Source: an uncultured Bacteroidales bacterium
GTDB taxonomy: Bacteria > Bacteroidota > Bacteroidia > Bacteroidales > UBA10428
Assembly (NCBI GenBank): GCA_963822145.1
Contig: CAWGGG010000005.1
Span: forward strand, 221,899 to 285,898
Direction of reading: 5' to 3'
DNA length: 64,000 bases
Shown: in pieces, positions 6,255-46,976 of the stretch
How positions within the stretch are numbered: position 1 is the stretch's first letter
How the letters are laid out: each line of letters starts with the position of its first letter
Notes under the pieces: generated by a model
The model's input: the letters and a program-made list of their open reading frames with translations, nothing else
What the model was told of the DNA's origin: nothing
Databases searched by the model: none
Position numbers and translations under genes: made by a program

Positions 6255-6296
6255 TCAGTATTCAGTGTTCGGTGTTCAGTATTCGGTGTTCGGTGT
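6255..6296. repeat. heptamer tandem array (TCRGTRT)x6
   Basis: tcagtat tcagtgt tcggtgt tcagtat tcggtgt tcggtgt, starting 5 nt after the stop at 6250. Confidence 0.9.
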
Positions 6297-6360
6297 TTTC
6301 AGATATTCCTTTTTTGATCTTCCATCTTGATCTTCAATCTTGAATTTTAAATCTTTACTT

Positions 6361-6684
6361 ATGAAAACGATTCGCTACTTTGCCGCTTTGCTCATGCTGG
6401 TTTCAGGGGTATGGCATGTGGTCCTTTATTTCAAAGCTCCTGATGTATGGGGAATAACTGCCCTGGTATTTGGCATTCTCTATCTCATCATCGGCCTGCT
6501 GCTGCTTAGGCCTAAGATGATCGGCGTGTATCTCGGACTAATTCCGGTTATTCCGCTAATCTCGGCTCCGTTTATAGTCAAGCCTGAAGACCTTGATATG
6601 ACTACAACCTCAATTTTGCTCATTGATCTGGTTGTGTTTGTCTGCTGTGTCTACCTGATCCTGAACAGAAAAAAGACATCCTGA
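6361..6684 (+). CDS. small integral membrane protein, unknown function
   Basis: The ORF encodes ~107 aa from ATG 6361 (the track start at 6340 is TTG), with 3-4 hydrophobic segments. No recognisable motif. Confidence 0.45.
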   Translation: MKTIRYFAALLMLVSGVWHVVLYFKAPDVWGITALVFGILYLIIGLLLLRPKMIGVYLGLIPVIPLISAPFIVKPEDLDMTTTSILLIDLVVFVCCVYLILNRKKTS

Positions 6685-6718
6685 ATTTCAATTTACCCAA
6701 CATAAAACCTATAAACAC

Positions 6719-7183
6719 ATGAGAAAAGTACTTTTTGTTCTGATTGCTGCCGTCATGGTTATTGCCCTGGCATGTTCGCCAAAGACGGCAGTCGTGAATA
6801 ACGATGCGCTGGTTGATTCACTTAATGCTGCCTGCGCTGCCGTATGGAACTCCGGCAATGCTGAAACAGCTGCAAACTATTATGCAGAGGATGTCATCAT
6901 GACTTTTCAGGACAATGTAACCATCAGCGGCAGGGATTCAATGCTGATTTTTTGCAAAGGTGCCTCACCTTATATAAAGAATATGAAAATTTTCAGGGGT
7001 ACCTATGCGATTGTGGATGATCTCATCACAGAAACAGGACTGTATTCTTTCGACTGGGTGGCAGATGATCAGACCGTTTATCCGAACAGGGGAAGCTATA
7101 TGATGTATTGGAGAAAAGCACCTGAGAACAAGTGGGTGGCCATCATGCAGATCAACCACCAGGCCAATGTGGTGGTGAAGTAA
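6719..7183 (+). CDS. SnoaL/DUF4440-like (NTF2 fold) lipoprotein
   Basis: Lipoprotein signal MRKVLFVLIAAVMVIALAC. Size and pattern (AETAANYYAEDVIM..., YMMYWRK...WVAIM) fit NTF2-like domains. The family call is tentative. Confidence 0.5.
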   Translation: MRKVLFVLIAAVMVIALACSPKTAVVNNDALVDSLNAACAAVWNSGNAETAANYYAEDVIMTFQDNVTISGRDSMLIFCKGASPYIKNMKIFRGTYAIVDDLITETGLYSFDWVADDQTVYPNRGSYMMYWRKAPENKWVAIMQINHQANVVVK

Positions 7184-7194
7184 TCCAGTGCGGT

Positions 7195-8073: not shown

Positions 8074-8106
8074 AATACTTAAAAACAAAAACTTATTATA
8101 CCTTTT

Positions 8107-8154
8107 AATCACTTAATCACTTAATCACTTAATCACTTAATCACTTCATCACCT
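8107..8154. repeat. octamer tandem array (AATCACTT)x5 plus one degenerate unit
   Basis: Five perfect units at 8107-8146, then catcacct. The array ends 14 nt upstream of the ATG at 8168. Confidence 0.95.
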
Positions 8155-8167
8155 AAACCCTATAAAC

Positions 8168-8476: not shown

Positions 8477-8483
8477 GGAACCA

Positions 8484-8509
8484 CCCCGACGGGGTACACC
8501 CCGTCGGGG
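8484..8509 (+). repeat. second copy of the CCCCGACGGGG/CCCCGTCGGGG hairpin
   Basis: Arms at 8484-8494 and 8499-8509 with a 4-nt loop, 8 nt after the stop at 8476. Arm sequences are identical to 5098-5130. Confidence 0.6.
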
Positions 8510-8546
8510 TGTCTGACAATCACCTAACCACTAATCAATCAATACC

Positions 8547-9524
8547 ATGAAAATTTTCATAACAGGGGCTACCGGGTTTATCGGAAACCAGGTGGTCAAC
8601 CGGCTGAGTCAAACCGAATCATGAACTGGTCTGTCTGGTCAGGAAAAACAATGAAGCCAGCGAACGACTCAAATCGCTCGGCGCAAAATTAATTATAGGA
8701 GATATTACCGATAAAGCGTCCATGTTACCGGGAATGAAAGGATGTGACTGGGTAATAAACATTGCTGCACTTTACTCATATTGGGAACCGGATAATGGTC
8801 TTTATCATAAGAATAATGTTGAAGGAACACGTAATGTGCTGGAGTGTGCTCTGGAGAACAAATTTCAAAGGTGGTGCATGTTAGCACCGTAGTCACGTAT
8901 GGAAAGCCTGCTGATGTTCCCTACACCGAAGAAAGCAAGGTTGGTCCTGTTCGTTTCAGCAGATACTCCCAGACAAAATTCGAAGGAGATCAGATACTTT
9001 GGGACTTATACAGGAACAAGAGTCTACCGGTAGTGGTGGTATATCCTTGCGCAGTATTGGGAGCCGGAGATCCAAAAGCAACAGGAAAATATGTTTCTGA
9101 CCTGATACATAAAAGATTGCCTGCCACTGTTTTTAAAAATGCCACGCTCACCTGGGTACATGTGAATGATGTAGCTGAAGCCATTGTCAGGGCCGTCGAG
9201 AAGCCTGGAAATCTGGGTGAGAAATACCTGATCGGTAATAATCGGCTGACCCTGGCCGAAATAAATAAGATGGTCAGTGAAATATCCGGAATAAGAATAC
9301 CAAAAATGTCAATGCCTGATTTCCTAGCCGTGCTTAGTGCCTACCTGTTTACCGGCCTGTCCAGATTGATTAAGGTCCAACCCCCCTGGGGCATGTCAGT
9401 CGATCAAATCAGAATGATGAAAGTTGGATTCCAGGTTGATGGAAGCAAAGCTGAGCGGGAGCTGGGCATTAAATATACCCCGATCTATAAAGCATTGGAA
9501 GAGGAAATTGCTGCAGATAAATAG
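8547..9524 (+). pseudogene. NAD-dependent epimerase/dehydratase (SDR) gene interrupted by two frameshifts
   Basis: Frame 0: MKIFITGATGFIGNQVVNRLSQTES then TGA at 8622. Frame +1 (8620-8892): HELVCLVRKNNEASERLKSLGAKLIIGDITD...GTRNVLECALENK. Frame 0 again from ~8862: ISKVVHVSTVVTYGKP... to 9524. Confidence 0.7.
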
Positions 9525-9536: not shown

Positions 9537-10451
9537 ATGAAAGTATTACTTATTATTATCGGGGCACTTTTCATGCTTGGACTTTTATTGTGGTTTGCAG
9601 GGGAGCGTGGAAGGCTTATTCTGCCTTCAACAGGAAGGTTTATAAGAATGGCCGGTCTGAAGCGTTTCCTGAGCTTTTCCACCCTGCATGGGTACATCTA
9701 TCTCAGGCTGCAGAAACAATACCTGAATTTTCTGATCAAGGCTAATCCGACCTCGCCTGATTTTGTGCGCAAATTTGTAACCAACAGATATCACAGCAAG
9801 ATCCTAACTCAGGAACAGGCGAAAAAGATCATTACCATCGACAGGGATATACCCTTACAGAACCTTGAACAGGTCATTCCCCATGAGATTGCCCGTAGCA
9901 TTGTGCTGAATGCTTCTCCGAAAATTGTAGCCTTTGAATGCGGATGCAGGCATTCACGCCCCAATCCCTGCCAGCCCACCCAGGTATGTTTGTTTATTGG
10001 GGAACCCTATGCGGATTTTATGCGGGAACATCACCCGAAAGAAAGCCGGGAGCTCACCAGGGCAGAGGCGCTTAAATTAATCGATGAGGAACATGCGCGC
10101 GGGCATCTTCATTCCGCCTGGTTCAAGGACGCGATGATGGACCGGTTTTATGTCATCTGTAATTGCTGCAAATGCTGTTGCGGCGGAATTGAGAATATGG
10201 TGAAATTTGGTTCGCCACAGATGGCCTCCTCAGGATATGTTATTGAGGCCAATGCTGATCTTTGTGAGGCTTGCGGCAGATGCGTGGAAACCTGTCCGTT
10301 TGAGGCACTCTCACTTGCAGATGATCAGGTGGCCATGGATTGGGAAAAATGCATGGGTTGCGGGGTATGCGTGGATCAGTGCCCCAATAAAGGATTGACG
10401 TTGAAAAGGGATGAAAGGAAGGGTATGCCGCTGGAGGTGGAGACATTGTAG
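9537..10451 (+). CDS. membrane-anchored 4Fe-4S dicluster domain protein
   Basis: N-terminal TM helix, Cys-rich core (CGCRHSRPNPC, CNCCKCCCGG) and two ferredoxin motifs CEACGRCVETCP and CMGCGVCVDQCP. Confidence 0.7.
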   Translation: MKVLLIIIGALFMLGLLLWFAGERGRLILPSTGRFIRMAGLKRFLSFSTLHGYIYLRLQKQYLNFLIKANPTSPDFVRKFVTNRYHSKILTQEQAKKIITIDRDIPLQNLEQVIPHEIARSIVLNASPKIVAFECGCRHSRPNPCQPTQVCLFIGEPYADFMREHHPKESRELTRAEALKLIDEEHARGHLHSAWFKDAMMDRFYVICNCCKCCCGGIENMVKFGSPQMASSGYVIEANADLCEACGRCVETCPFEALSLADDQVAMDWEKCMGCGVCVDQCPNKGLTLKRDERKGMPLEVETL

Positions 10452-10520
10452 GCTGAAGACTGGAGGCTAAAGGCTGAAGGCTGAAGGCTGAAGGCTGAAG
10501 GCTGAAGGCTGAAGGTTGAA
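10451..10520. repeat. heptamer tandem array (GGCTGAA)x10
   Basis: The array starts on the last base of the stop codon at 10449-10451. It has 7 perfect and 3 variant units (gactgga, ggctaaa, ggttgaa). Confidence 0.95.
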
Positions 10521-10549
10521 GAGGAACACTTAAGAGGCAAAAGTACTGA

Positions 10550-10900
10550 TTAACGCATAGCTTTAATTAGCGATCCCAGTACTTTTTCGGTTTCCAATAT
10601 TTTTAAATCACATTCTTTACCAAGGGTTTCTTGAATATAGCCGAGTCGCAATGCCAACCCAAATTGATAATGCAGTTCTTTTAATGAACCGTATGCGATT
10701 TCAAGAAATCTGCGGTACTCACTCTGGGTCAGACGCGCACAACCTTCAACAATATTAGAAGGTACTGAAATTCCACATCTTCTCATTTGGGATGTAAGAC
10801 CAAACATTTCGTCCTTGGGGAATCCTTTGGTCAATCTGTAAACCAGGAACACCAATTCATCAGCAAGTTCAAATGCTCTTAATTTTGAATGATCTCTCAT
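10550..10900 (-). CDS. four-helix-bundle protein (23S rRNA intervening-sequence protein family)
   Basis: 116 aa. FELADELVFLVYRLTKGFPKDEMFGLTSQMRRCGISVPSNIVEG...YGSLKELHYQ matches the conserved pattern of this family. Confidence 0.8.
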   Translation of the reverse strand: MRDHSKLRAFELADELVFLVYRLTKGFPKDEMFGLTSQMRRCGISVPSNIVEGCARLTQSEYRRFLEIAYGSLKELHYQFGLALRLGYIQETLGKECDLKILETEKVLGSLIKAMR

Positions 10901-10950
10901 GCCTAACGGGTTTTAATAATTAACAAACCTGAACTTTCTAAAATATGCTT

Positions 10951-10992
10951 TAAGCCTTCAGCCTTTAGCCTTAAGCCTTAAGCCTTAAGCCT
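10951..10992. repeat. heptamer tandem array (TNAGCCT)x6, the reverse complement of the 10451-10520 unit
   Basis: taagcct tcagcct ttagcct taagcct taagcct taagcct. The reverse complement is AGGCTNA, a circular permutation of GGCTGAA. Confidence 0.95.
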
Positions 10993-11002: not shown

Positions 11003-12280
11003 TCAATCATCCAGTGCCGCATACACCAGCGCCCTGAATTTGTCCCCTAACTCGCCGTGAGTAAGCGGGAATTGCTGTGCAAAGAGCAGGCATACCAGTT
11101 GCTCTTCAGGATCAGCCCAATAGGTGGTTCCCCAGAAACCGCCCCAGGCGAAAGATCCCTCAGTCATTCCCAGTCTGGCCTGACCGGCTTGGGTCGTAAT
11201 TTCGAATCCAAGGCCGAATTTATTGGCGCCAAGGTTCAGATCCCCGATCTGGTTGCAGGTCATCAGATCCACCGTTCTTCTGGAAAGAATTCGCTTTCCG
11301 TTGTATTCGCCGTCGTTCAGCAGCATCTGGAGAAAAATGGCATAATCCGAAATAGAGGAACTCAATCCGGCCCCGCCGGAAAAATAGGTGCCCTCTGCAA
11401 GAGGATAATCGGCATTGATACCCGGTAAGGCCTCTGGATACCATTTCATGGCATGGTGTCCCGTATCTTCGGTGGATACGGCTACGAGCCGGGATTGCTT
11501 TTCTTTGGGCAAGTAAAAATAGGTATCTTCCATGTCCAGGGGTTCAAACAGTTTTTCCTTCAGGAAACGATCGAACGGCATGTCCGAAAGAACCTCCACC
11601 AGGTAACCCAGGACATCGGTATTGAGACCGTAAGTGAATCGCTCCCCGGGTTGATGAACCAGCGGAAGTTTTGCGAGTTTTTTCATCCAATCGCCCAGGA
11701 CAAGAGGACGGCTTTCAAATCCAACAGGAATGCCGGCTTTGGCATAGATGGCGTTCATGGGAGCAGAACCGATTCCGGCATAATCAATTCCGGAAGTATG
11801 GGTGAGCAGATCCCTGATGGTGATCTCACGGCTGGCAGGCACGGTTGTATAAGAAGTATCTTTGGGATCAAACTGACTGAGCACCACAGGATGGGCAAAC
11901 TCAGGTATGTATTTGGAGATCGGGTCGTCGAGCAGGAGTTTCCCCTCTTCATAAAGCATCATAACGGCCACACTGGTGATGGCCTTGGTCTGTGAAGCAA
12001 TGCGGAAAATAGCATCCTTTTCCAGGGGTGTCTTCTTTTCTGCATCACTGACCCCGAATGATTTCCAGTAGGCAATCTTGCCATTCCGGGCAATAAAGGC
12101 TACTGCGCCATTGACCAATTGATTATCAATACTTCTCTGTATCAGGCTGTCAATATTGCCGAGTCTGTCGGATGACATTTCAACTGTGGCAGGATCAACC
12201 TTTTCGATCGCAGTTTGTTTGATACATGAATGGAAGCCGATCCAGGAAAAGACCAGCAGCAGCAGGGTTAATTTTTTCAT
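11003..12280 (-). CDS. serine hydrolase, beta-lactamase (class C/PBP4-like) family
   Basis: S-x-x-K motif in RIASQTKAITSV and family-typical length. ATG at 12280 gives the lipoprotein-like signal MKKLTLLLLVFSWIGFHSC. Confidence 0.8.
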   Translation of the reverse strand: MKKLTLLLLVFSWIGFHSCIKQTAIEKVDPATVEMSSDRLGNIDSLIQRSIDNQLVNGAVAFIARNGKIAYWKSFGVSDAEKKTPLEKDAIFRIASQTKAITSVAVMMLYEEGKLLLDDPISKYIPEFAHPVVLSQFDPKDTSYTTVPASREITIRDLLTHTSGIDYAGIGSAPMNAIYAKAGIPVGFESRPLVLGDWMKKLAKLPLVHQPGERFTYGLNTDVLGYLVEVLSDMPFDRFLKEKLFEPLDMEDTYFYLPKEKQSRLVAVSTEDTGHHAMKWYPEALPGINADYPLAEGTYFSGGAGLSSSISDYAIFLQMLLNDGEYNGKRILSRRTVDLMTCNQIGDLNLGANKFGLGFEITTQAGQARLGMTEGSFAWGGFWGTTYWADPEEQLVCLLFAQQFPLTHGELGDKFRALVYAALDD

Positions 12281-12387: not shown

Positions 12388-12429
12388 AATGTTATATGTT
12401 GTAGGTTGCATGTTGTATGTTGTAGGCCT
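12388..12429. repeat. heptamer array (TAKGTTG-like)x6 enclosed by a 7-nt inverted repeat
   Basis: aatgtta tatgttg taggttg catgttg tatgttg taggcct, flanked by ttcaggc (12380-12386) and gcctgaa (12426-12432). Confidence 0.85.
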
Positions 12430-12500: not shown

Positions 12501-13118
12501 ATGAAAACCAAAAATCTACTTTTAATGATGCTTTTATGCACGGTTTCAGGTTTAAAAGCACAGACAACCCATACAATAAGCGAAAGCGGTTTTACATATG
12601 TACCTACGGAGCTAACCGTGAATACAGGAGAAACGGTTGAGTTCAATACCACTTCAAGCCACCCTGTACGTGAAGTGAGTGAGGCAACCTGGAATGACAA
12701 TGGCATAACGTTGCTTGAAGGAGGATTCTCATTTAATGATGGGAGTGGTACGGTAACTTTTAACACGCCAGGTGTGCATTATTATGTTTGCACGGCACAT
12801 GTGGCTTCACAGGGCATGAAAGGTAAGATAACTGTAGTGGGAGCGGCAGGACTTGATGAAATATCAGTCTCTGATGGATATGATGTTTATCCGGTTCCAC
12901 TTAAAGGAAGTGATCTGACGATCTCGTCAAAAACATCAGCGCCGGAGACCGTGGATGTTTCTATCTATGACCTGGCAGGTAACCTCAGGATATCCGCTCT
13001 GGTAACAATCACAGACGGCAAATATCCAATGGATTGTTCCGTGCTTCCGGCGGGCATTTTCATCATGAAACTGAAAACTGCGGAGGGAGCTTCATTTGCC
13101 AAGCTGGTTAAGGAATAA
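12501..13118 (+). CDS. cupredoxin (plastocyanin/azurin-like) domain protein with T9SS-type C-terminal domain
   Basis: Signal peptide. Type-1 copper ligand spacing SSHPV ... YYVCTAHVASQGM (His, Cys-x2-His-x4-Met). The C-terminal ~80 aa (VYPVPLKG...IFIMKLKTAEGASFAKLVKE) look like a T9SS CTD. Confidence 0.7.
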   Translation: MKTKNLLLMMLLCTVSGLKAQTTHTISESGFTYVPTELTVNTGETVEFNTTSSHPVREVSEATWNDNGITLLEGGFSFNDGSGTVTFNTPGVHYYVCTAHVASQGMKGKITVVGAAGLDEISVSDGYDVYPVPLKGSDLTISSKTSAPETVDVSIYDLAGNLRISALVTITDGKYPMDCSVLPAGIFIMKLKTAEGASFAKLVKE

Positions 13119-13130: not shown

Positions 13131-14060
13131 CTATCTTATCTCCAGTGTTTTCATAAGCTGGACCATACCTTGTTCGGGTGACAGCGGTTCATAGCCAAAG
13201 CGCTTTTCGAACTTACTGCTGTTAAATATATAATCCCTGTCATACTGGTAGGCCATTTCTGCAAATTCCCTAAAGAGGGGTACAAACAGCCCTATCAACC
13301 GTAACATCCAGACGGGTATGACAGTGAAGCGCGGATTTTTATTCATAATTCCCGCGATGAGCTCAATCCATTGCTGGCCGGTTAAGCGTTGATTACTTGT
13401 TGGAAGGTGCCAGATCTGGTTAAAAGCATCAGGTGTGTTACCCAGGATGGCAGTAGCTTTAGCCCCATCGGTGGCTGCAGTAAAGGTGTGAATTTTTGCA
13501 GCACTGGCAAACCACATGGCTTTCTTTCCTTTGGCCAGGTTTTTAACCACCATTTCCACCAGTACACTATTCTTTGGTGAATAAAAGTCAGCTGCGCGCG
13601 CGATGATGGCAGTGAGTCTTTTTCGCTGCACTTCTTCCAGGATCATGCCGGCAATGGTTGCCCTAACAACTCCTTTTTTACTGGAAGGCCTCACAGGTGT
13701 TTCCTCGGTGAGGTTATTCATATAATCTTTGTCATACATGTAAACATTGTCAAAAAAAACAAGCTTTGCCTGATGTTTTATACATCCATCCAGTACATTA
13801 CGCATGATAACAGGCCATTGTCTTTGCCACACGCTGGCCTTGTATGCAAGACCGGCAGTGAGGTAAACCACCTCAGATCCTTCTATGGCCCTATCCACTG
13901 CAGCATGATCCATAAGATCTGCTGGTAATAGCTCATCTCCATCGTTTACCTTTTTTGGGTTGCGACTTACCAGCCTAATGCTGCTGGTGTGCCGGCGGAG
14001 TTCTTTTGCCAGTGGAATGCCTATTCCGCCTCCGGAGCCAAGAATGGTTTGCATGGACAT
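13131..14060 (-). CDS. NAD(P)H-binding SDR/NmrA-like oxidoreductase
   Basis: N-terminal Rossmann motif ILGSGGGIGIPLAKEL and atypical-SDR length (309 aa). Confidence 0.65.
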   Translation of the reverse strand: MSMQTILGSGGGIGIPLAKELRRHTSSIRLVSRNPKKVNDGDELLPADLMDHAAVDRAIEGSEVVYLTAGLAYKASVWQRQWPVIMRNVLDGCIKHQAKLVFFDNVYMYDKDYMNNLTEETPVRPSSKKGVVRATIAGMILEEVQRKRLTAIIARAADFYSPKNSVLVEMVVKNLAKGKKAMWFASAAKIHTFTAATDGAKATAILGNTPDAFNQIWHLPTSNQRLTGQQWIELIAGIMNKNPRFTVIPVWMLRLIGLFVPLFREFAEMAYQYDRDYIFNSSKFEKRFGYEPLSPEQGMVQLMKTLEIR

Positions 14061-14069
14061 AAGGTTATT

Positions 14070-14157
14070 AAGTGATTAAGTGATTAAGTGATTAAGTGAT
14101 TAAGTGATTAAGTGATTAAGTGATTAAGTGATTAAGTGATTAAGTGATTAAGTGATT
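14070..14157. repeat. octamer tandem array (AAGTGATT)x11, the complement of the 8107 array unit
   Basis: Eleven perfect units begin 10 nt from the start codon (14058-14060) of the minus-strand gene. Read on the gene strand the unit is AATCACTT. Confidence 0.95.
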
Positions 14158-14255
14158 AAGTTATGCATGCTGATATGGTAATTTAACAGGCAGCACGGAA
14201 TTTGGTTTAAAGTTAGTAATTTGGTTCTGTTCATTTATTTAAAGAATTCCTAAAA

Positions 14256-16250: not shown

Positions 16251-16272
16251 AAAACCCCGCCATGAGCGGGGT
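16249..16272 (-). terminator. rho-independent terminator of dnaK (bidirectional hairpin)
   Basis: Stem CCCCGC/GCGGGG (16255-16260 and 16666-16671 read as 16266-16271) with loop catga. On the minus strand it is followed by T6 (complement of 16249-16254). It lies 28 nt after the dnaK stop. Confidence 0.8.
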
Positions 16273-16299
16273 CTTAAGGGATACACTTAAAAACTATAT

Positions 16300-18442: not shown

Positions 18443-19264
18443 ATGTCAGTTGCTACAACCGATAAACCCAAAAGGATCACCACCCATGTATTGCAGGAGA
18501 TGAAAGTACGTGGAGAGAAAATTTCCATGCTTACCGCTTATGATTATTCCATGGCCAAGATCATTGACCGCGCCGGCATTGATGTGATACTGGTTGGCGA
18601 TTCTGCTTCCAATGTGATGGCCGGTCATGAGACCACCATACCCATTACGCTTGACGAGATGATCTATCATGCGGCATCTGTAGTACGTGCTGTGGAAAGG
18701 GCATTGGTTGTTGTGGATATGCCATTCGGATCCTATCAGGGGAATTCCAAGGAGGCCCTGAATTCAGCCATACGCATCATGAAAGAAACCGGTGCCAGTG
18801 CGGTTAAACTCGAAGGCGGCCAGGAAATCCAGGAATCCGTGATCCGTATCCTATCTGCCGGTATCCCGGTTATGGGACATCTCGGTCTTACCCCCCAGTC
18901 GATTCATAAATTCGGCACCTTTGTGGTAAGGGCGCGGGAGGACCAGGAAGCCAGGAAGCTGGTTGAAGATGCTCATTTACTGGAACTGACCGGATGCTTC
19001 TCCATTGTACTGGAAAAGATCCCTGCCCGGCTGGGTGCTCAGGTAGCCCAGGAATTAAAGATACCCATTATCGGAATCGGTGCAGGCAGGTTTGTTGACG
19101 GTCAGGTGCTGGTGTTGCATGACATGCTGGGTATTACCCAGGATTTCTCTCCCCGGTTTCTCCGGCGGTATCATAATCTTTACCAGGAAATTACCGGGGC
19201 GGTGAATAACTACATTACCGATATCAAGAACCTGGAGTTTCCGAATGACAAAGAGCAATATTAG
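18443..19264 (+). CDS. panB: 3-methyl-2-oxobutanoate hydroxymethyltransferase
   Basis: [36 protein letters not shown]...[10 protein letters not shown]...AVKLEGG is the PanB pattern. I chose ATG at 18443 (the track start at 18413 is an upstream extension). Confidence 0.9.
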
Positions 19265-19305
19265 GGACAAGGGACGAGGGACAAGGGACGAGGGACAAGG
19301 GACAA
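19264..19305. repeat. heptamer tandem array (GGGACRA)x6
   Basis: gggacaa gggacga gggacaa gggacga gggacaa gggacaa. It fills the whole spacer between the panB stop (19262-19264) and the ATG at 19309. Confidence 0.95.
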
Positions 19306-19308
19306 GGA

Positions 19309-32508: not shown

Positions 32509-32535
32509 GATATTCTTCCTTTTTTTTCTTTAAAG

Positions 32536-32564
32536 ATCCCGTTTTCGAAACGGGATTTTTTTTT
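32536..32564 (+). terminator. rho-independent terminator
   Basis: Stem ATCCCGTT/AACGGGAT with loop ttcg, followed by T9. It lies 28 nt after the stop at 32508. Confidence 0.85.
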
Positions 32565-39239: not shown

Positions 39240-41753
39240 TTACTGATCATTCGGCTGGTGCTTTTGTTTTTTTAAGTATTCCAGATACTTGGTCACAAAC
39301 CGGAGATCACTCCAGGAAACCAGCTCTCCAAGTGCTTCTTTAGCGGAGGAAATGGAATAATTCTCCCGGTTCCGGAAATACCGGGTAATCAACGCAATCT
39401 TGTCGGGCGACGCGAATTCATTCACGGATAGTTCTCCCGAGCCGACGAAATGCGCCAAATGACCTTCAATGGTAGAAATCGCCATATCCCGCTCCCGGGC
39501 GATATGTGGTAATGATTTTCCTGCCTTGAACAGGTTGTAGCTGATGAGTTTGGTGTCTTTTTTGATCCGTACGGAAGGTGCTTTAGGGGTAAATACCTCA
39601 GGCAGTGGTGATTCGAGATTATGTTCACGGCAATAATCCTGGATGATCAGCAACAGCTCATTTCCGTATTGTTCTAACTTCTTTTTCCCCATTCCCTTAA
39701 CCTTCTTCAGTGCTTGTGAGGTTTGTGGGAGAAAGTTAGCGAGGGTGGCGATGGTTCCTTTGGGAAGAATCATGTAGTGTGTCAGATTCAATTCCCTGGC
39801 CATGTCATCCCGCCAGGCTTTCAGTCTGTTATACAATCCGGGATGTTGAACTATTCCGGAAGTGTCTTCAATACCAGCTGACACAGGTTTTTTTACCAGC
39901 GATGTTTCCAGGGTTGCCAGTGCTTTCGCATCAAGATAGGATTTAATCCGGAATCCTGTTTTAACGGCATTCAGGCAGGCCAGCTTCATCAGGGCTTCCT
40001 GCCTGACTCGTTCCAGGGCTTCTGCGACTGATTTCCTTATGGCTTTGTTGTCGGTTTCAATGGTCACTCCCGCAAGAATTTCATGCAGTCCTTCGTTAAT
40101 CCTGTCGGAAAAGTAAAGTGCTGCTTTCCGGATCCTTTCCTGTACCGTTTCATCGTGTTCAATATCAGGATGCAAAGGCAGCAAACGTGTCAGTTGAAGG
40201 AGAAACTTTCGGGAAACCTCAATGAGTCCCCCGGTTACAAAGGAGTCCGTCCTTTCCAGCAGAGCATCCGTATGGCCCAGTATGCTGTTGCCATTTTCCT
40301 TGATCAGTTTATGGCAGTTCTGGATCCCACGGGAAATGGAATGGAAGTCAAAGAGTTCGGTCAGCAGTTCTTGCAGGTAAACTTGTTTCGATTCGCTGAG
40401 CATTTGCTTGTCGGGTTGATGTTGCGCAGCATCCCTGACAAATCCCGAAACCGCAGGATCACTGATGATCCCCTGTTGCTGTACCTGAGTGCTGAGCACG
40501 AGACCTTCCAGTGTTCTGCAACGACTCAGTGCCACATACACCTGACCGTGTGCAAAGGCCGCCCGGGCATCAATGATGGCCTTGTCAAAAGTCAGTCCCT
40601 GGCTCTTGTGTATGGTAATGGCCCAGGCCAATTTCAACGGATATTGCGTGAACGTACCGACAATAGTCTCCTCAATTTCCCTGGTTTCCGGGTTGAGCGT
40701 ATACTTCATGTTCTGCCATTCGGCCATTTTCACTTCCACAGGGGCATCATCCTCTTGACAGTGGACAATGATGACATCATTCTCAAAGTCTATGATCCTG
40801 CCAATTTTGCCATTGAAATATAGCTTTTCCCGGGAGATGTCATTCTTGACAAACATCACCTGGGCGCTGGTCTTCAATTCAAGTTTGTAGGCCGTGGGAT
40901 AGGCATATTCCGGGAAATCATCCTTTATCAATGCCTGGAAAGTATGGACCTGGCCGGGAAGTTTTTCCAGTTGGGTATTATTAATGGACTGTGCCTGTGC
41001 ATTATGGGTGGTAAGGGTAATGTATCCTTCGTTTTCACCAGGCTGGAAATGGGGATCAAATCTTTTATTCAGTTGTTGCAGGGCATCAGTATCCAGCCGG
41101 TTATCGCGGATTTTGTTTAACAGATGGATGAAATCCAGGTCACGCTGCCGGTAAATATGTTTCAGTTCAATGGTGATATAGTCGGTATTCTGGAGCGCCC
41201 TGCTGCCAAAGAAAAAGGCGGTATCGTAATACTTTCCCAGGATTTCCCAGTCCTCATCCTTCACCACCGGAGCAAGCTGCTGGAGATCGCCGATCATCAG
41301 CAACTGAACACCTCCGAAAGGCTTATGGCGATTTTTATAGCGACGGAGAATCTGGTCCACAGCATCGAGCAGGTCGCACCGCACCATACTGATCTCGTCA
41401 ATTACCAGAAGGTCCAGACTTTTAATAATATTGATTTTTTCGCGGCTGACTTTGTAGGGGGCAGACTCGGGAGATCCGGACGAAAGATTGCCATCTTCAG
41501 GGTTTAAATATTGAATGGGAAGGTGGGGATGAAAGGGAAGCTGAAAGAAGGAATGGATGGTAACGCCGCCGGCATTGATCGCTGCCACACCGGTGGGGGC
41601 CACCACGATCATACGCTTTGGTGATGTTTTTTTTAGTTTGTGAAGAAAAGTTGTTTTACCTGTCCCGGCTTTTCCGGTCAGGAAAATATGCCGGTTGGTG
41701 TATTGCACAAAATCGTGGGCAAGCTGCAGGTCTTGGTTGGTAACGGGTTCCAT
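39240..41753 (-). CDS. Pif1/RecD-like SF1 helicase with HRDC and C-terminal HTH-like domains
   Basis: Walker A LTGKAGTGKTT, Walker B LLVIDEISM, VALSRCRTLEGLVL, and an HRDC-like segment (LYNRLKAWRDDMAREL...VKGMGKKKLEQYG). I chose ATG at 41753; the track extension to 41828 starts with TTG and runs into a repeat array. Confidence 0.8.
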   Translation of the reverse strand: MEPVTNQDLQLAHDFVQYTNRHIFLTGKAGTGKTTFLHKLKKTSPKRMIVVAPTGVAAINAGGVTIHSFFQLPFHPHLPIQYLNPEDGNLSSGSPESAPYKVSREKINIIKSLDLLVIDEISMVRCDLLDAVDQILRRYKNRHKPFGGVQLLMIGDLQQLAPVVKDEDWEILGKYYDTAFFFGSRALQNTDYITIELKHIYRQRDLDFIHLLNKIRDNRLDTDALQQLNKRFDPHFQPGENEGYITLTTHNAQAQSINNTQLEKLPGQVHTFQALIKDDFPEYAYPTAYKLELKTSAQVMFVKNDISREKLYFNGKIGRIIDFENDVIIVHCQEDDAPVEVKMAEWQNMKYTLNPETREIEETIVGTFTQYPLKLAWAITIHKSQGLTFDKAIIDARAAFAHGQVYVALSRCRTLEGLVLSTQVQQQGIISDPAVSGFVRDAAQHQPDKQMLSESKQVYLQELLTELFDFHSISRGIQNCHKLIKENGNSILGHTDALLERTDSFVTGGLIEVSRKFLLQLTRLLPLHPDIEHDETVQERIRKAALYFSDRINEGLHEILAGVTIETDNKAIRKSVAEALERVRQEALMKLACLNAVKTGFRIKSYLDAKALATLETSLVKKPVSAGIEDTSGIVQHPGLYNRLKAWRDDMARELNLTHYMILPKGTIATLANFLPQTSQALKKVKGMGKKKLEQYGNELLLIIQDYCREHNLESPLPEVFTPKAPSVRIKKDTKLISYNLFKAGKSLPHIARERDMAISTIEGHLAHFVGSGELSVNEFASPDKIALITRYFRNRENYSISSAKEALGELVSWSDLRFVTKYLEYLKKQKHQPNDQ

Positions 41754-41804
41754 ATTGGGCCTAAGGGGTTGTTTAGAACAATAAATATAATATTTAACAG
41801 GGTA

Positions 41805-41844
41805 ATGTGCAAATGTGAAAATGTGCAAATGTGCAAATGTGAAG
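41805..41844. repeat. octamer tandem array (ATGTGMAA)x5
   Basis: atgtgcaa atgtgaaa atgtgcaa atgtgcaa atgtgaag, upstream of the helicase gene. Confidence 0.9.
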
Positions 41845-41959
41845 AACGAGAAATTGCTGGATCAGGTATTGGGAATAAAGAAGTTACTGGGTAGAATATT
41901 TTATTCTTCTAAGAATCAGGTATAATTTCCGCCATAAAATGTTTCTTAATAAAAGTGGC

Positions 41960-41999
41960 GTTTACATTTGCACATTAGCATATTTGCACATTTGCAGAT
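41960..41999. repeat. octamer array (TTGCACAT-like)x5, inverted complement of 41805-41844
   Basis: gtttacat ttgcacat tagcatat ttgcacat ttgcagat. It ends 3 nt before the AraC gene stop codon (42003-42005). Confidence 0.85.
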
Positions 42000-42002
42000 T
42001 AA

Positions 42003-42995: not shown

Positions 42996-44021
42996 ATGAA
43001 TTCTGTTTGGAGCATTCTTCTGATGGCCATCGGCAGTATTTGTGCTGCCAGTTTTTATGTCCCCATAAAGAAAATCAAGGGATGGTCGTGGGAATCCTAC
43101 TGGATTGTGCAGGGCGTTTTCTCCTGGATCCTGGTCCCGGCATTATTTGCCTGGCTCACAGTACCTTCCGGAACTCTGGATGATATCATAAGTCTGGCTC
43201 CGGCCTCCTCACGTTGGTGGGCGGCTTTTTACGGTGCCTTATGGGGTGTCGGAGGTCTTACTTTCGGATTGAGTATGCGCTACCTGGGTGTTGCATTGGG
43301 GCAATCGATCGCACTGGGATTATGTGCCGGCATCGGTACGCTGGTGCCGCCATTGCTGAAAGGTCAAAACCTGTTTGCCGACCGGTCAGGTGTTCTCATC
43401 CTGATCGGTGTTGCTGTCAGCATGGCCGGTATCGCTATTATCGGATATGCTGCAAGTCTGAAAAGCAGGAATATGACTGAAGATGAAAGAAGATCAGCCA
43501 TCAAGGAATTTGCCCTGAAGAAAGGCATCCTGATCGCCATTCTGGCGGGTGTCATGAGCGCCTGTTTCAGTTTCGGCCTGAACGCCGGAAAGCCGATCCA
43601 GGATGCTGCCCTGAGTTTTGGCACCAATCCGCTTTTTGCCAAGAATCCCGTTATCCTTTTTGTCACATTGGGCGGCTTTGTAACCAACCTCATTTATTGT
43701 GTCTTTCTGAACATCAAAAACGGAACGGGCCGGGATTACTTGTCCGTCTCTTCTGCAGTCCTGATCAACAACCTCATCTTTTCCGCCATTGGCGGTACCT
43801 TGTGGTACATGCAGTTCTTTTTCATGGGGATGGGTGAAAGCCAACTTCCGGCAACCATGATTGCATTTGCCTGGAGCATCCTGATGTCGATGAATATCGC
43901 TTTCAGCAACATCTGGGGGATCATTCTGAAAGAATGGAAGGGAGCGGGGAGGAGAACGATACTGGTGCTGGTGATAGGCATTGTGATTCTGGTATTGTCA
44001 ACCTTTGTAATCAAGTTGTGA
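42996..44021 (+). CDS. rhaT: L-rhamnose/H+ symporter
   Basis: Aligns by eye with E. coli RhaT along its length (CAASFYVPIKKIKGWSWESYW, LSMRYLG, WYMQFFF, ILKEWKGAGRR). ATG at 42996 (the track start at 42924 is TTG). Confidence 0.85.
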   Translation: MNSVWSILLMAIGSICAASFYVPIKKIKGWSWESYWIVQGVFSWILVPALFAWLTVPSGTLDDIISLAPASSRWWAAFYGALWGVGGLTFGLSMRYLGVALGQSIALGLCAGIGTLVPPLLKGQNLFADRSGVLILIGVAVSMAGIAIIGYAASLKSRNMTEDERRSAIKEFALKKGILIAILAGVMSACFSFGLNAGKPIQDAALSFGTNPLFAKNPVILFVTLGGFVTNLIYCVFLNIKNGTGRDYLSVSSAVLINNLIFSAIGGTLWYMQFFFMGMGESQLPATMIAFAWSILMSMNIAFSNIWGIILKEWKGAGRRTILVLVIGIVILVLSTFVIKL

Positions 44022-44093
44022 TCGTTGCGGTTGTTGTGGGTTATTAACTGTAAAAAGTTGTGGTGGTTGTGATGGTTGTGTGTTATGATGGTT
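44016..44093. repeat. degenerate nonamer-like array (TTGTGATNG-type), inverted relative to 44107-44160
   Basis: ttgtgatcg ttgcggttg ttgtgggtt ... ttgtggtgg ttgtgatgg ttgtgtgtt atgatggtt. It begins just before the rhaT stop codon. Confidence 0.7.
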
Positions 44094-44106
44094 AAGAATG
44101 ATCCAA

Positions 44107-44160
44107 CAATCACAACAATCACAACAATCACAACAATCACAACAATCACAACAATCACAA
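44107..44160. repeat. nonamer tandem array (CAATCACAA)x6
   Basis: Six perfect 9-nt units, ending 26 nt before the rhaA ATG. Confidence 0.95.
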
Positions 44161-44186
44161 CTTTTTAAAACATAAAAACCAACCAT

Positions 44187-45452
44187 ATGAAAAAAGATAA
44201 AGTCTTACAGTCCTACAACGACGCGAAAGAACAATACGCTGCAATGGGTGTGGATACCGATGCTGCTTTAAGAAAACTTGACCAGGTGAAAATCAGCCTG
44301 CACTGCTGGCAAACCGATGATGTCGGCGGTTTTGAAACACCTGATGCCGTGTTGGGAGGCGGAGGCATTCAGGCCACTGGTAATTATCCCGGGAAGGCGC
44401 GCACCATTGATCATCTTCGGCAGGACATTGAAAAGGTAATGTCCCTTTTACCCGGTAAACAACGCCTTAATCTGCATGCCATCTATGGCGATTTCAAGGG
44501 TGAGAAGGTGGATCGCGACCAGATTGAAGTAAGGCACTTCCAGAGCTGGATCGACTGGGCTAAAAAGCATGAAACAGGACTCGATTTCAATCCCACTTGC
44601 TTTTCACATCCTTATGCCGATGACGGCTTCACCCTGTCGAGCAAGAATGAGAAATACCGCAAATTCTGGATTGAGCATACAAAACGCACACGGAAAATTG
44701 CGGCTGAAATGGGGAAGCAATTGGGCACACCCTCGGTGAACAACATCTGGATTCCCGATGGGTCAAAAGACATTCCTGTGGACAGAAATGCACACCGAAC
44801 CCTGCTGAAGCAATCTCTTGATGAGATATTTAAGGAGGAATACCCGAAGCAGTACCTGAAAGACGCGGTGGAAAGCAAATTGTTCGGCATTGGTTCAGAG
44901 TCTATGGTGGTGGGATCAGCCGAGTTTTACCTGGGCTATGCGATCAAAAACAACAAGCTTATCTGTCTGGATAACGGTCATTTTCACCCCACAGAGCAGG
45001 TAGGTGACAAAATTTCTTCGGTGCTGCAATATGTGGATGAGTTGTTGCTTCACGTGACCCGCGGTGTCAGATGGGACAGTGACCATGTGGTGATCTTCAA
45101 CGACGAGATCCAGTTGATCGCCCAGGAAATAGTACGCTGCAATGCTTTGCACCGGGTGAATGTCGGGCTTGACTATTTCGACGCCAGCCTGAACCGTATC
45201 GGCGCTTACGTGATTGGAACACGTGCTGCCCAGCTGGCGTTCCTGTATGCCTTGCTTGAACCTGCAGAAACCCTGAAAAAATATGAAGAAACCGGGCAGA
45301 ATTTTGAACGGCTGGCATTGATGGAGGTCATGAAAACCAAGCCCCTGGGAGCTGTTTACAATTACTATTGTCTCATCAACAATATTCCGGTCGCTGAGGA
45401 TTATATCTCAGAGGTTCAGCAGTATGAGAAGGAGGTTTTAAGCAGAAGATAG
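44187..45452 (+). CDS. rhaA: L-rhamnose isomerase
   Basis: 421 aa. ISLHCWQTDDVGGFE and the overall pattern are typical of RhaA, and the gene sits in a rhamnose cluster. Confidence 0.9.
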   Translation: MKKDKVLQSYNDAKEQYAAMGVDTDAALRKLDQVKISLHCWQTDDVGGFETPDAVLGGGGIQATGNYPGKARTIDHLRQDIEKVMSLLPGKQRLNLHAIYGDFKGEKVDRDQIEVRHFQSWIDWAKKHETGLDFNPTCFSHPYADDGFTLSSKNEKYRKFWIEHTKRTRKIAAEMGKQLGTPSVNNIWIPDGSKDIPVDRNAHRTLLKQSLDEIFKEEYPKQYLKDAVESKLFGIGSESMVVGSAEFYLGYAIKNNKLICLDNGHFHPTEQVGDKISSVLQYVDELLLHVTRGVRWDSDHVVIFNDEIQLIAQEIVRCNALHRVNVGLDYFDASLNRIGAYVIGTRAAQLAFLYALLEPAETLKKYEETGQNFERLALMEVMKTKPLGAVYNYYCLINNIPVAEDYISEVQQYEKEVLSRR

Positions 45453-45520
45453 TGATTAGTGACTAGTGACTTGTGACTAGTGACTAGTCACCAATCACTC
45501 TTCACTCTTCACAATTCACT
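45451..45520. repeat. heptamer arrays in head-to-head inversion: (AGTGACT)x5 then (NNTCACN)x5
   Basis: agtgatt agtgact agtgact tgtgact agtgact | agtcacc aatcact cttcact cttcaca attcact. It starts inside the rhaA stop codon and ends 10 nt before the next ATG. Confidence 0.9.
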
Positions 45521-45530
45521 TTTTTAAAAA

Positions 45531-46901
45531 ATGCTACAAGAAGTAATAGCCATATTTGATATCGGGAAGACAAACAAGAAATTTCTTTTGTTTGATGCAG
45601 CATTGAACCTGGTTCACCAGGAGGAAGGGACTTTCCCTGAGATTTTGGATGAGGAGGGATTTTCATGCGATGATGTGTTACTGCTGGAAAACTGGATGTG
45701 GAAAACCCTTTCCGCCGCTGTCAGTAATGGAGCCTACCTCGTTAAAGCGGTAAATTTCACTTCTTACGGGGCCAGCCTGATGCATCTAGATGCTGAAGGA
45801 AAAAAGCTAACACCTGTATATAATTACCTGAAGCCGATGCCTGAAGGTGTATTGGAGGGCTTTTATGAAACATGGGGCGGGATAGAGGAATTCAGCCGAA
45901 AAACCGCATCACCGGCACTGGGGATGCTGAATTCAGGCCTTCAGATCCTGTGGCTGAAAAGAAAGAAACCAACGCTTTTTGCAAAGATCAAGGCGGTTTT
46001 GCATTTCCCCCAGTTCCTAAGTTATTGTTTTACAAATACCATTGCATCAGAGTATACCTCCATCGGTTGTCATACGGCCATGTGGGATTTTGACAACAAA
46101 TGCTTCCATCCCTGGCTGGCACACGAGGGGATTACACTGCCCAGCCCGGTTTCCAATGCAACGGTGCTGGATGTTGCCATTGACGGCCACAGGGTGCAAG
46201 CGGGTATTGGTATTCATGACAGTTCTTCCTCACTGGTTCCCTATTTGAAAGGAAGCAAGGAAGAATTTATACTCATCTCCACGGGTACCTGGTGTATTTT
46301 TATGAATCCTTTCAATCCTGAACCCCTTACGCCCGGGCAGCTACAACGGGACTCTTTGTGCTATATGAGCATTCAGCAGCAGCAGGTGAAATCTTCGCGC
46401 CTGTTCCTGGGCCATATTCATGATGCACACGTGGAAAAACTAAACAAACACTTTGGCGTTGTCAGGGAGCACTATAAATCAATTAAAACTACCAGCGAGA
46501 AGGTCAGCAGGTTGTTGATGAACAGCAGGGGTAGGGTGTTTTTCAGGCAGGGAGTGCCGGCAGATTATGTTGATTCGTCAGTGAGCCTTTCTCAATTCCT
46601 GACTTTTGCCGATGCGTATCACCAGCTCATGGCCGACCTGGTGGATCTGTGTTTGGAATCCCTGGATCTTATAATACCCGTGGAAGATCATACCAAAACG
46701 GTTTATGTTTCAGGCGGTTTTGCGCGAAATGAGTTATTCGTCAGGTTACTTGCTGCCCGTCTGCCAGGCAAAAAGGTTTACACCTCCGAAGTCGACAATG
46801 CCACCGCACTGGGAGCAGCCATGGTGGTTTATGAAGCTGCTTTTGGCAGCGAAATACCGTCAATTGATCTTGGTTTGAATCTAGTACAAGGAATACTATA
46901 A
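45531..46901 (+). CDS. FGGY-family carbohydrate kinase (putative rhamnulokinase)
   Basis: 456 aa. N-terminal AIFDIGKTNKKFLLFD (actin-like ATPase phosphate-1) and C-terminal VYVSGGFARNELFVRLLA. Position after rhaA. Confidence 0.65.
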   Translation: MLQEVIAIFDIGKTNKKFLLFDAALNLVHQEEGTFPEILDEEGFSCDDVLLLENWMWKTLSAAVSNGAYLVKAVNFTSYGASLMHLDAEGKKLTPVYNYLKPMPEGVLEGFYETWGGIEEFSRKTASPALGMLNSGLQILWLKRKKPTLFAKIKAVLHFPQFLSYCFTNTIASEYTSIGCHTAMWDFDNKCFHPWLAHEGITLPSPVSNATVLDVAIDGHRVQAGIGIHDSSSSLVPYLKGSKEEFILISTGTWCIFMNPFNPEPLTPGQLQRDSLCYMSIQQQQVKSSRLFLGHIHDAHVEKLNKHFGVVREHYKSIKTTSEKVSRLLMNSRGRVFFRQGVPADYVDSSVSLSQFLTFADAYHQLMADLVDLCLESLDLIIPVEDHTKTVYVSGGFARNELFVRLLAARLPGKKVYTSEVDNATALGAAMVVYEAAFGSEIPSIDLGLNLVQGIL

Positions 46902-46904
46902 TAA

Positions 46905-46976
46905 GTCGTGCAGTCCTGCAGTCCTGCAGTCGTGCAGTCTATATTCGCGGATCGCAAGACCGCAAGACCGCAAGAC
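46905..46976. repeat. two octamer arrays: (GTCSTGCA)x4 and (CGCAAGAC)x3, near-complementary
   Basis: gtcgtgca gtcctgca gtcctgca gtcgtgca (46905-46936) ... cgcaagac x3 (46953-46976). The reverse complement of the second unit, gtcttgcg, matches the first unit at 6 of 8 positions. Confidence 0.9.

Follow-up and report, generated by a model that had tools for sequence, protein, structure and literature searches.

What are the tandem arrays of 7- to 9-nt units that fill spacers between genes in a 64,000-nt stretch of an uncultured Bacteroidales genome (GenBank assembly GCA_963822145.1, contig CAWGGG010000005.1, positions 221,899–285,898; below, the window), and why are several of them paired with their approximate reverse complement? 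The key to the pairs is a small gene at 10550–10900 on the minus strand, which the initial annotation of the arrays had passed over. It encodes a protein of the PF05635 family, also called the S23p, four-helix-bundle or '23S rRNA-intervening sequence protein' family. We consider it probable that the pairs are the arms of stem–loop cassettes, akin to the intervening sequences (IVS) of 23S rRNA and located in the spacers of protein operons, which change by slippage of the arms and loss of the gene.

The window was compared with 160 related loci, labelled here by L-numbers (e.g. L001, L011, L195); the whole set comprises 2.03 Mb and 1529 crudely called genes. A longest-ORF (open reading frame) rule was used for gene calling and gave 51 genes in the window, 89% of which is coding. 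Arrays were detected with Tandem Repeats Finder (TRF), and sequences were also read directly. As a control for chance, 50 dinucleotide-preserving shuffles of the window were searched with the same criterion (period 5–11, at least 3.5 copies).

Paired arrays and the PF05635 gene

The intact cassette and the other pairs of the window are as follows:

10450–10521, plus strand: AGGCTGA ×10.3, a 7-mer found by TRF; distal arm of the intact cassette (TCAGCCT when read along the enclosed gene); the TAG stop of a convergent Fer4 gene (9537–10451) shares bases with the first unit
10550–10900, minus strand: 116-aa four-helix-bundle / S23p / '23S rRNA-intervening sequence protein' gene, in the loop between the AGGCT-type arms
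10950–10992, minus strand: AGGCTTA ×6.1 in the minus sense, found by TRF; proximal arm of the intact cassette, 10 nt past the stop of a beta-lactamase-family gene (11003–12280, minus strand)
28124–28170 / 28188–28225, plus strand: hairpin-only pair of AGGCT-type and AGCCTAA-type arms with an 18-nt loop; the first arm begins in the TAG stop of a histidine kinase gene
41804–41841 / 41964–42000, minus strand: pair of AATGTGCA ×4.8 and ACATTTGC ×4.6 in the spacer between an araC-family gene and a PIF1-like helicase gene
44016–44161 (TRF 44057–44093 / 44104–44161), plus strand: hairpin-only pair in the rhaT–rhaA spacer; a GTTGTGATG-like arm spans the rhaT stop, and a G-free CAACAATCA ×6.4 arm ends 25 nt before the rhaA ATG
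45450–45488 / 45495–45520, plus strand: hairpin-only pair in the rhaA–rhaB spacer, AGTGACT ×5.6 beginning in the TAG stop (45450) and TCACTCT ×3.7; about 20 nt ahead of the rhaB ATG are unpaired
46904–46939 / 46953–46976, plus strand: hairpin-only pair after rhaB, GTCSTGCA ×4.5 starting 2 nt past the stop and CGCAAGAC ×3

The product of 10550–10900 matches PF05635 (E = 4e-31) and the NCBIfam model for four-helix-bundle proteins, TIGR02436 (E = 1.5e-30), and among solved structures it is closest to the pentamer of Xanthomonas campestris XCC0516 (PDB 2GSC, E = 7e-24). There is also a weak match to Avd of diversity-generating retroelements (DGRs), with scores below the cut-off of the Avd family. 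A PADLOC search of the PF05635 proteins returned no match to a defence system.

The association of this family with arrays extends to the related loci. A scan with profile hidden Markov models recovered seven PF05635 genes or fragments in the whole set, and all seven have arrays at most 300 nt away. Arrays on both sides are found at 17 of the 1529 genes, and the two are mutually complementary at only four of these, all of them complete PF05635 genes. Expressed the other way, complementary flanking arrays occur at 4/4 complete PF05635 genes and at 0/1525 other genes in 2.03 Mb.

The pair at 41804–42000 encloses 122 nt that include about 24 C-terminal codons of a PF05635 gene (41846–41920, plus strand), matching the proteins of L011, L014 and L024 with E = 5e-10 to 8e-8. 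In those three loci, the same AATGTGCA/ACATTTGC pair encloses about 480 nt with an intact PF05635 gene. The flanking arrays are alike, and the remnant lies on the strand opposite to the intact gene of L011 (2889–3230) and L024, which would fit either a loop flipped through recombination of the two inverted arms or an independent insertion. Remnants were also sought in the gaps of L061 and L157 and in all six-frame fragments of the window, and the one at 41846–41920 was the only one found. Across the set, gaps between complementary arms fall into three groups, of 428–489 nt (gene present), 84–122 nt and 8–21 nt (hairpin only), and these look like a decay series from full cassette to bare hairpin.

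The product of the gene next to this decayed cassette (39240–41753, minus strand) is a PIF1-like helicase that has HRDC and HTH_40 domains, and the adjacency is kept in L011 and L024. HRDC proteins are an alternative accessory component of DGRs (PMC10053308); the adjacency of helicase and cassette may be a coincidence.

Orthologous spacers with and without the gene were found at two further sites. In L195, also from Bacteroidales, neighbouring genes encode a histidine kinase 87% identical and a methyltransferase 75% identical to those of the window, and the spacer between them runs from (TAGGCTAT)x4, starting at the kinase TAG, through a PF05635 gene to (AATAGTCT)x8. The AGGCT-type arms at 28124–28225 align with these arms at the orthologous spacer, and the window pair is the ORF-less form of the PF05635 cassette. 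In L098, the rhaA–rhaB spacer has a PF05635 gene between AGTAGTY units and (ACTTCTA)x17, where the window has its AGTGACT/TCACTCT hairpin. The cassette of L014 follows a sigma-factor gene. Its homology to the cassettes of L011 and L024 spans both arrays completely and ends where they end; the flanks are unrelated to theirs. Judged from these comparisons, the cassette seems to move, and its arms go along with the gene.

The initial annotation had proposed that the inverted pairs could fold into long imperfect hairpins, and folding bears this out. Five paired spacers are more stable than their shuffles, with z = −5.1 (28124), −4.8 (41804), −4.6 (44016), −5.4 (45450) and −3.8 (46904). The sixth pair, that of the intact cassette (10450/10950), is likewise complementary, with a cofold energy of −79.6 kcal/mol and z = −8.4. 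Pairs leave an A-rich leader of about 20–30 nt unpaired ahead of the next ATG. A comparison of sense and antisense fold energies as a test of the selected transcript was dropped; the antisense is slightly more stable in 5/5 pairs, mostly driven by the flanks.

The same combination of protein and arm recurs far beyond the window. AGGCT-type arms are found at three window loci and in five phyla, and X. campestris has many pairs of 4+4 units. Proteins of the window type, at 66–77% identity and accompanied by AGGCT-type arms, occur in Bacteroidales, Ignavibacteria, Verrucomicrobiota, Armatimonadota and an organism with a cheA context. The arms around these genes are TAGGCTG x3 and CAGCCTA x3 in a Verrucomicrobiota genome, TAGGCTGTAGG in an Armatimonadota genome, two AGACTNA units in Ignavibacteria, and very large AGGCTGTAG/CTACAGCC arrays in the cheA–cheB spacer. 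Similarly, the protein of the L011 type has AATGTGCN arms at four Bacteroidales loci and in Paludibacter, where it lies between leuC and leuD. Pairing by itself permits any sequence. The retention of the arm motif at 30% protein divergence suggests either that whole cassettes have spread recently or that something recognises the motif, and the encoded protein would be the simplest recogniser.

Nostoc plasmids and Xanthomonas share the architecture. A translated search of 72,556 plasmids found a PF05635 gene in 26 records, nearly all from filamentous cyanobacteria. Eight of these regions were examined, and in several the gene sits between genes of one system (ribonucleotide reductase beta and alpha; cas6 and cas4). 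Flanking arrays in these regions include (GTAGGGA)x8/(TCCCTAC)x5, (AGGGAAC)x4/(GTTCCCT)x7 and (GGGTGTR)x4/(YACACCC)x5; the remaining cyanobacterial cases are less convincing, and in one the arrays are direct instead of inverted. The gene with its arrays lies between cas6 and cas4 on a Pseudanabaena plasmid (L182) and on a plasmid of Anabaena sp. 90 (L185), within a CRISPR-cas operon whose type is I-D according to the cas1d annotation of L185.

In X. campestris, XCC0516 is located between accB and accC. On its 5' side are the units GGGAATC GGGAGTG GAGAATC GGGAATC and on its 3' side CATTCCC CATTCTC GACTCCC TATTCCC, which run directly into the accC ATG. Variant units are mirrored in order between the two arms, and the seventh base of every unit is mismatched. 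DGR-like adenine mutagenesis was considered as the cause of the periodic mismatches and rejected, the mismatched positions not being adenines. The array upstream of XCC0516 is repeat #15 in the table of Rehm et al., where it is placed by a 'conserved' gene and the gene family passes unremarked (PMC4692102).

The 23S rRNA IVS of Leptospira and Coxiella is one of the described elements closest to the cassette. It likewise has a PF05635 ORF in the loop of an inverted-repeat stem, ORF decay and suspected mobility, and its 5' arm has heptamers in strain-variable copy number (PMC4990558). In the Coxiella IVS, two or three GACAGAT heptamers lie at the RNase III site, 5' of the S23p ORF, and their number varies between strains (PMC4990558). 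The window cassettes have the PF05635/TIGR02436 ORF and the pairing inverted repeats of an IVS and differ in location, the IVS being inserted in helix 25 or 45 of 23S rRNA, where excision by RNase III has been shown (PMC4990558), whereas the cassettes lie between protein-coding genes, with arms that are much longer arrays and a stem whose processing is putative.

Repetitive extragenic palindromic (REP) sequences, their mosaic clusters (BIMEs) and miniature inverted-repeat transposable elements (MITEs) are also intergenic hairpin repeats in operon spacers, with ORF-less forms outnumbering those that carry an ORF. However, REPs are single palindromes mobilized by RAYT transposase and MITEs have terminal inverted repeats and target-site duplications, while the cassettes have tandem arrays as arms, with no transposase present and no duplication found. 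Avd of DGRs belongs to a homologous four-helix-bundle fold family (PF05635 / bAvd; PMC10053308), but no reverse transcriptase and no pair of template and variable repeats adjoins the cassettes.

Placement, strand bias and copy-number change

The remaining arrays of the window are unpaired:

6255–6297, plus strand: lone G/T-rich array, TCRGTRT ×5–6, a 7-mer found by TRF, 4 nt past the stop of a DUF362 gene (5153–6250); in the mRNA sense G is 0.32 and C 0.14
6314–6355, plus strand: degenerate C/T-rich array of 7/13-nt period found by TRF, directly before the start codon at 6361; not complementary to 6255–6297, and the spacer folds no better than shuffles (z = +1.7)
8105–8156, plus strand: lone G-free array, AATCACTT ×6.5, an 8-mer 11 nt before the ATG at 8168; G = 0.00
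12396–12426, minus strand: weak, degenerate array of 7/14-nt period, TAKGTTG-like, in a divergent spacer; TRF score 37–47, ×4, 81% matches
14067–14161, minus strand: lone G-free array, AATCACTT ×11.9 in the minus sense, an 8-mer with 100% TRF matches, 6 nt before the ATG of an epimerase-family gene (13131–14060, minus strand); G = 0.00
19263–19307, plus strand: AGGGACR ×6.4, a 7-mer that begins in a TAG stop and occupies the entire 44-nt panB–rluA spacer

TRF recovers an array at every place where one had been reported, direct reading confirms the sequences, and no array was found in the 50 shuffles. The least convincing entry is the one at 12396–12426, whose spacer folds no better than shuffles. 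Units are 7, 8 or 9 nt long, in 3–12 copies with 80–100% matches, and the TRF output also contains higher-order periods of 14, 15 and 21 nt. The units abut directly, without unique spacers, and are far shorter than the 23–50-nt repeats of a CRISPR array, in agreement with the earlier statement that they are not CRISPRs.

The arrays were described as intergenic, often starting at stop codons, and both observations hold. All 13 strong arrays lie outside the gene calls, and in the pooled set 121 of 136 arrays are intergenic although intergenic bases make up about 11%. Periods among the pooled intergenic arrays are 7 nt in 49, 8 nt in 44 and 9 nt in 8. About eight window arrays start inside a stop codon or at most 5 nt past it: those at 10450, 19263, 45450 and 28124 overlap the stop, those at 46904, 42000 (minus strand) and 6255 start 2–4 nt after it, and that at 44016 spans it.

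Base composition follows the neighbouring gene. In the sense of that gene, pooled arrays nearest a stop have 27% G and 12% C, and those nearest a start have 10% G and 23% C (Mann–Whitney p = 2e-9). The rule, G-rich after stops and G-poor before starts, holds locus by locus in the window, and array-free spacers are near G/C balance. The two G-free arrays at 8105–8156 and 14067–14161 have the common unit AATCACTT, in the sense of the downstream gene in both, just before its ATG. Pairs have a uniform polarity, the first arm having more G than C and the second more C than G in 15/17; in X. campestris, the plus-strand GGGAATC copy comes first in every pair among the rows examined of the Rehm table (PMC4692102).

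A further claim, that the unit differs from locus to locus, is true in that several unit families exist, but strict locus specificity fails. AGGCT-type units occur at three window loci (10450, 10950 and 28124/28194), the AGGGACR unit of 19263–19307 also follows stop codons in L001, L003, L008 and L009, and unit families of the window recur in other species.

Relatives have arrays in matching spacers; the arrays are neither an assembly artefact nor a peculiarity of the window. When TRF was run on the 160 related loci, arrays were found in the nearest relatives, Anaerophaga thermohalophila and others, and Ignavibacteria, Melioribacter and more distant taxa were mostly without them. The arrays are a trait of the window's clade. 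Since related loci show arrays in the same spacers with changed units and copies, the arrays are tied to gene boundaries and turn over fast.

Copy number changes rapidly, as had been suspected. The CAACAATCA array before rhaA has 6.4 copies in the window and 16.7 in L001. In a strain whose PF05635 protein is 98% identical, the spacer is shorter by exactly 42 nt, equal to six heptamers of 10450–10521, and contigs with identical flanking proteins differ in arm length and unit variants. Units are replaced as well: in the rhaT–rhaA spacer, L009 and L011 carry GTTGTGATG/AACAACCAC pairs and others AAATCAAC or AAATCAT units, and after rhaB, at the place of the window pair 46904–46976, L002 has GTCGTGCAG ×8.9.

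Further hairpin families occur in the same spacers of relatives (L008, L018 and L019 in rhaT–rhaA; also L009, L010 and L017), for example GTAGAGACAAGGCATTGCCTTGTCTCTAC and G/C-rich CCCCCTTCGGAGGGGG-type stems, sometimes beside arrays. In L003, the AGGGACA array 3' of rhaB is succeeded by a hexamer array (GGCAGT x11, 12800–12867) that extends as far as the end of the contig. Many contigs with PF05635 genes are very short, which suggests that arrays break assemblies.

The initial annotation knew of no described class for these arrays. However, the same arrays are known as short tandemly repeated repetitive (STRR) sequences and as long simple sequence repeats (LSSR5-11; both as covered in PMC4679880), and as the heptamers of Rehm et al. 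(PMC4692102). According to PMC4679880, Mrazek et al. 2007 found long 5–11-nt repeats, heptamers foremost, to be abundant in scattered bacteria, and STRR/LSSR5-11 share with the window arrays the tandem 5–11-nt units, of which 7 is commonest, the intergenic location, the many loci and a patchy phylogeny; they differ in phylum and in units. The window arrays are real and occur throughout the lineage, and with units of 7–9 nt they belong to the heptamer class of short tandem repeats, having, in the broad sense of LSSR5-11/STRR, tandem 5–11-nt units, an intergenic bias, many loci and variable copies.

In the strict sense they are not STRR, the window being Bacteroidales-like and none of its units matching the STRR1–3 consensus. 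The consensus units of STRR in heterocystous cyanobacteria, attributed to Mazel et al. 1990, are reportedly CCCCAGT, TTGGTCA and CAACAGT.

Rehm et al. 2015 described GGGAATC arrays in Xanthomonas and GGGGAYT arrays in Nostoc, mostly transcribed (PMC4692102). Like the window arrays, these are intergenic 7-mers, mainly between co-directional genes and variable between close relatives, with a G-rich sense strand 0–50 nt from or overlapping the stop and a C-rich sense before the start (PMC4692102). Their supplementary table contains many inverted pairs of 4+4 units, 36–67 nt apart, in gltB–gltD, groES–groEL, atpA–atpG, atpD–atpC and holC–pepA (PMC4692102). Their account has one dominant unit family per genome and an emphasis on G-quadruplexes, whereas the window has several families of 7–9 nt, mostly incapable of forming quadruplexes; it is silent on the S23p gene although repeat #15 abuts XCC0516 (PMC4692102). 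MacGregor 2015 reported TAACTGA arrays just 5' of start codons, and other heptamers in spacers of Gramella and Aequorivita (PMC4679880). The TAACTGA repeats of Beggiatoaceae, cyanobacteria and some Bacteroidetes resemble the window arrays as heptamers a few nt before starts, with a proposed post-transcriptional role, but they are a single unit, mostly in 2–6 copies, with no inverted-pair or cassette architecture described (PMC4679880).

The arrays are therefore a further lineage of a known, unexplained phenomenon and not a new class. What looks new is the link between paired arrays and PF05635 cassettes. In a limited literature, where older work may hold related remarks, we found no paper tying an S23p/PF05635/four-helix-bundle gene to intergenic arrays, and the literature searchable here makes no link between STRR/LSSR5-11 and a protein-coding cassette.

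Origin and role of the arrays

Each cassette consists of a G-rich arm starting in or next to the upstream stop, a loop that is empty or holds a small PF05635 gene (S23p / four-helix-bundle, Avd-like), and a complementary G-poor arm ending 10–30 nt ahead of the next start codon. Arm, gene and arm move as a single unit. We propose that slipped-strand mispairing lengthens and shortens the arms, and that frequent loss of the gene gives rise to hairpin-only pairs; single arms were probably left over likewise, so that lone arrays too may descend from cassettes. In the transcript, the arms could form a long stem interrupted at regular intervals by mismatches. If the rRNA IVS is a guide, RNase III most likely cuts or binds this stem, which might serve as an intercistronic processing or stability element to the benefit of the host; a cut would separate or stabilize the cistrons and free the message of the small gene. 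Shine–Dalgarno-poor Bacteroidota favour structure-free, A-rich leaders. G-free lone arrays ahead of start codons may provide such a structure-free leader, and, more speculatively, the G-first polarity could keep the C-rich, G-poor arm from being exposed as a loading site for Rho.

Several points weigh against this proposal. At about 120 of the 136 arrays, neither a PF05635 gene nor a detectable remnant of one is close by. Descent from a cassette is evident at three window loci, and arm similarity or orthology suggests it for two more; the lone arrays at 6255, 8105, 12396, 14067 and 19263 may have arisen in place. The pairs with and without the gene at orthologous sites can be read in either direction, as loss of the ORF or as its insertion into an existing hairpin, and neither a target-site duplication nor a mobility enzyme or transposase was seen at the compared cassettes. 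The PF05635 genes of L162 and L197 have arms of two units, or none on one side, and the arrays around that of L182 are direct, not inverted. Many of the 160 related loci are orthologous and hence not independent samples, and crude gene calls underlie all intergenic and flanking counts. RNase III processing of the stems in this organism is a pure analogy. Finally, the G-first order of the pairs is the same after reverse complementation, and we rejected it as proof of selection at the RNA level; because this polarity is a property of the element, only lone arrays are informative on selection of the transcript.

More tentatively, PF05635 cassettes could be mobile stem–loops found across phyla, and the source of STRR, GGGAATC and the window heptamers alike, with the protein reading its own arm motif and the 23S IVS as a special case. 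This wider hypothesis is possible, though less likely than not; under it, the pentameric protein would take part in propagation of the cassette or in handling of the RNA stem.

That the arrays arise in place by polymerase slippage, as neutral or weakly selected filler, and that PF05635 genes home into pre-existing hairpin loops, seems to us unlikely. In its favour, most arrays have no PF05635 gene near, many different units and several lone arrays exist, copy number changes fast, and slippage typically yields higher-order periods such as those of 14, 15 and 21 nt; Mrazek et al. 2007 proposed slippage linked to a polymerase footprint of 7 nt, as related in PMC4679880. It does not explain why the core motif of the arms follows the protein subfamily across phyla, or why homology between the L014 cassette and those of L011 and L024 takes in the arrays and goes no further than their outer limits. 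The variant units mirrored in the two arms of X. campestris would, moreover, not result from independent slippage in each arm.

The initial annotation suggested that the pairs are transcription terminators or insulators, or that the arrays stabilize mRNA 3' ends. The stems are long, two or three of the pairs are followed by a short U-run (CUUUUUAAAA in rhaT–rhaA, UUUUUUAAAAA in rhaA–rhaB), and REP elements of Escherichia coli stabilize upstream mRNA. The reading is nonetheless improbable, as pairs lie between cistrons of one co-directional rhamnose operon. The organism has ordinary terminators, as seen from textbook sites of a short GC stem and T-run at 16251–16275 (minus strand), after dnaK, and 32532–32560 (plus strand), after a gene ending at 32508, and these clear intrinsic terminators are free of repeats, unlike the arrays. 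A terminator scan of the window did not flag the pairs as complete sites of stem and U-tract. The lone arrays before starts are unstructured, the spacers at 8105 and 14067 having a minimum free energy of 0.0 in the sense direction (antisense, −7 and −18 kcal/mol; −17.9 for 14067). In X. campestris, pairs lie within the atp, groESL and glt operons (PMC4692102), and to terminate transcription there would be damaging.

We give little credence to contingency loci, or arrays that bind a regulator, in which copy number tunes the expression of neighbours. The arrays are hypervariable between strains with identical neighbouring genes, and deletion of heptamers reportedly alters reporter activity of the recO and recF upstream regions of Nostoc (preprint 10.1101/2022.06.06.494920). 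However, unlike the simple sequence repeats of phase variation, whose units are of 1–5 nt, the arrays have units of 7–9 nt and lie after stops or between cistrons, outside promoters and reading frames; the neighbours are housekeeping or catabolic genes with no shared theme, and many unit families would need many regulators. A role of the G-rich arrays as DNA or RNA G-quadruplexes, of the kind suggested for GGGAATC and GGGGAYT, is very unlikely: the array at 19263–19307, with six GGG tracts and 4-nt loops on the sense strand, starting in the stop exactly as in PMC4692102, fits the motif and is the only one with the at least four G3 tracts of a Rehm-type array, but its unit family is the only one in the window with such tracts, and AGGCTGA, AGTGACT, GTTGTGATG, GTCGTGCA and TCGGTGT cannot form three-tetrad quadruplexes.

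Reports of heptamer arrays go back to 1990 in cyanobacteria and later came from Xanthomonas, Beggiatoaceae and others, with no agreement on where the arrays come from or what they do. Thousands of proteins belong to the S23p / four-helix-bundle family, which has a solved structure, a well-known relative in Avd and no known role. If the two belong together, the protein gains candidate nucleic-acid targets and the arrays a plausible source, and the idea of an intervening sequence would reach polycistronic mRNAs such as those of the atp, groESL, acc, leu, cas and rha operons. In practice, arrays break short-read assemblies and shift annotated gene starts and ends, and strain-variable arrays could serve as typing markers.

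Other features of the window

The genes of the window are Bacteroidota-like and include GH97, GH130, a GH78 rhamnosidase, a rhaT-rhaA-rhaB operon with an AraC-family regulator, DnaK and PanB. Neither RhaA nor DnaK of the window has an identical protein on record. RhaA is 93–94% identical to that of uncultured Bacteroidales genomes, and the gene order helicase-araC-rhaT-rhaA-rhaB is kept among relatives. Scans for tRNA and Rfam families gave no match in the window, which also has no rRNA. Counts from sigma-70 promoter and terminator scans of the window were near shuffle expectation, with nothing bearing on the arrays apart from the ordinary terminators described above.

Two 334-aa ORFs on opposite strands, at 3104–4108 (minus strand) and 4083–5087 (plus strand), overlap by 26 nt where they meet. 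An NAD-dependent epimerase gene (8547–9524) looks disrupted: the ORF from 8547 ends after about 25 codons and resumes as a 226-aa ORF at 8844–9524. A related contig has an intact 325-aa epimerase gene at this position; either the window copy is a pseudogene or its sequence contains an error.

A perfect GC-rich hairpin (CACCCCGACGGGGT A CACCCCGTCGGGGTG) at 8482–8512 lies directly 3' of the stop of an EthD-like gene, and degenerate G-poor heptamers run from it to the ATG at 8547. Another dispersed palindromic element, GCTGAGCGGAGTCGAAG with its complement, occurs at 55040–55140 and in the rha-operon spacers of L001 (11320–11390 and 12790–12870). These palindromes look like a REP-like family separate from the tandem arrays.

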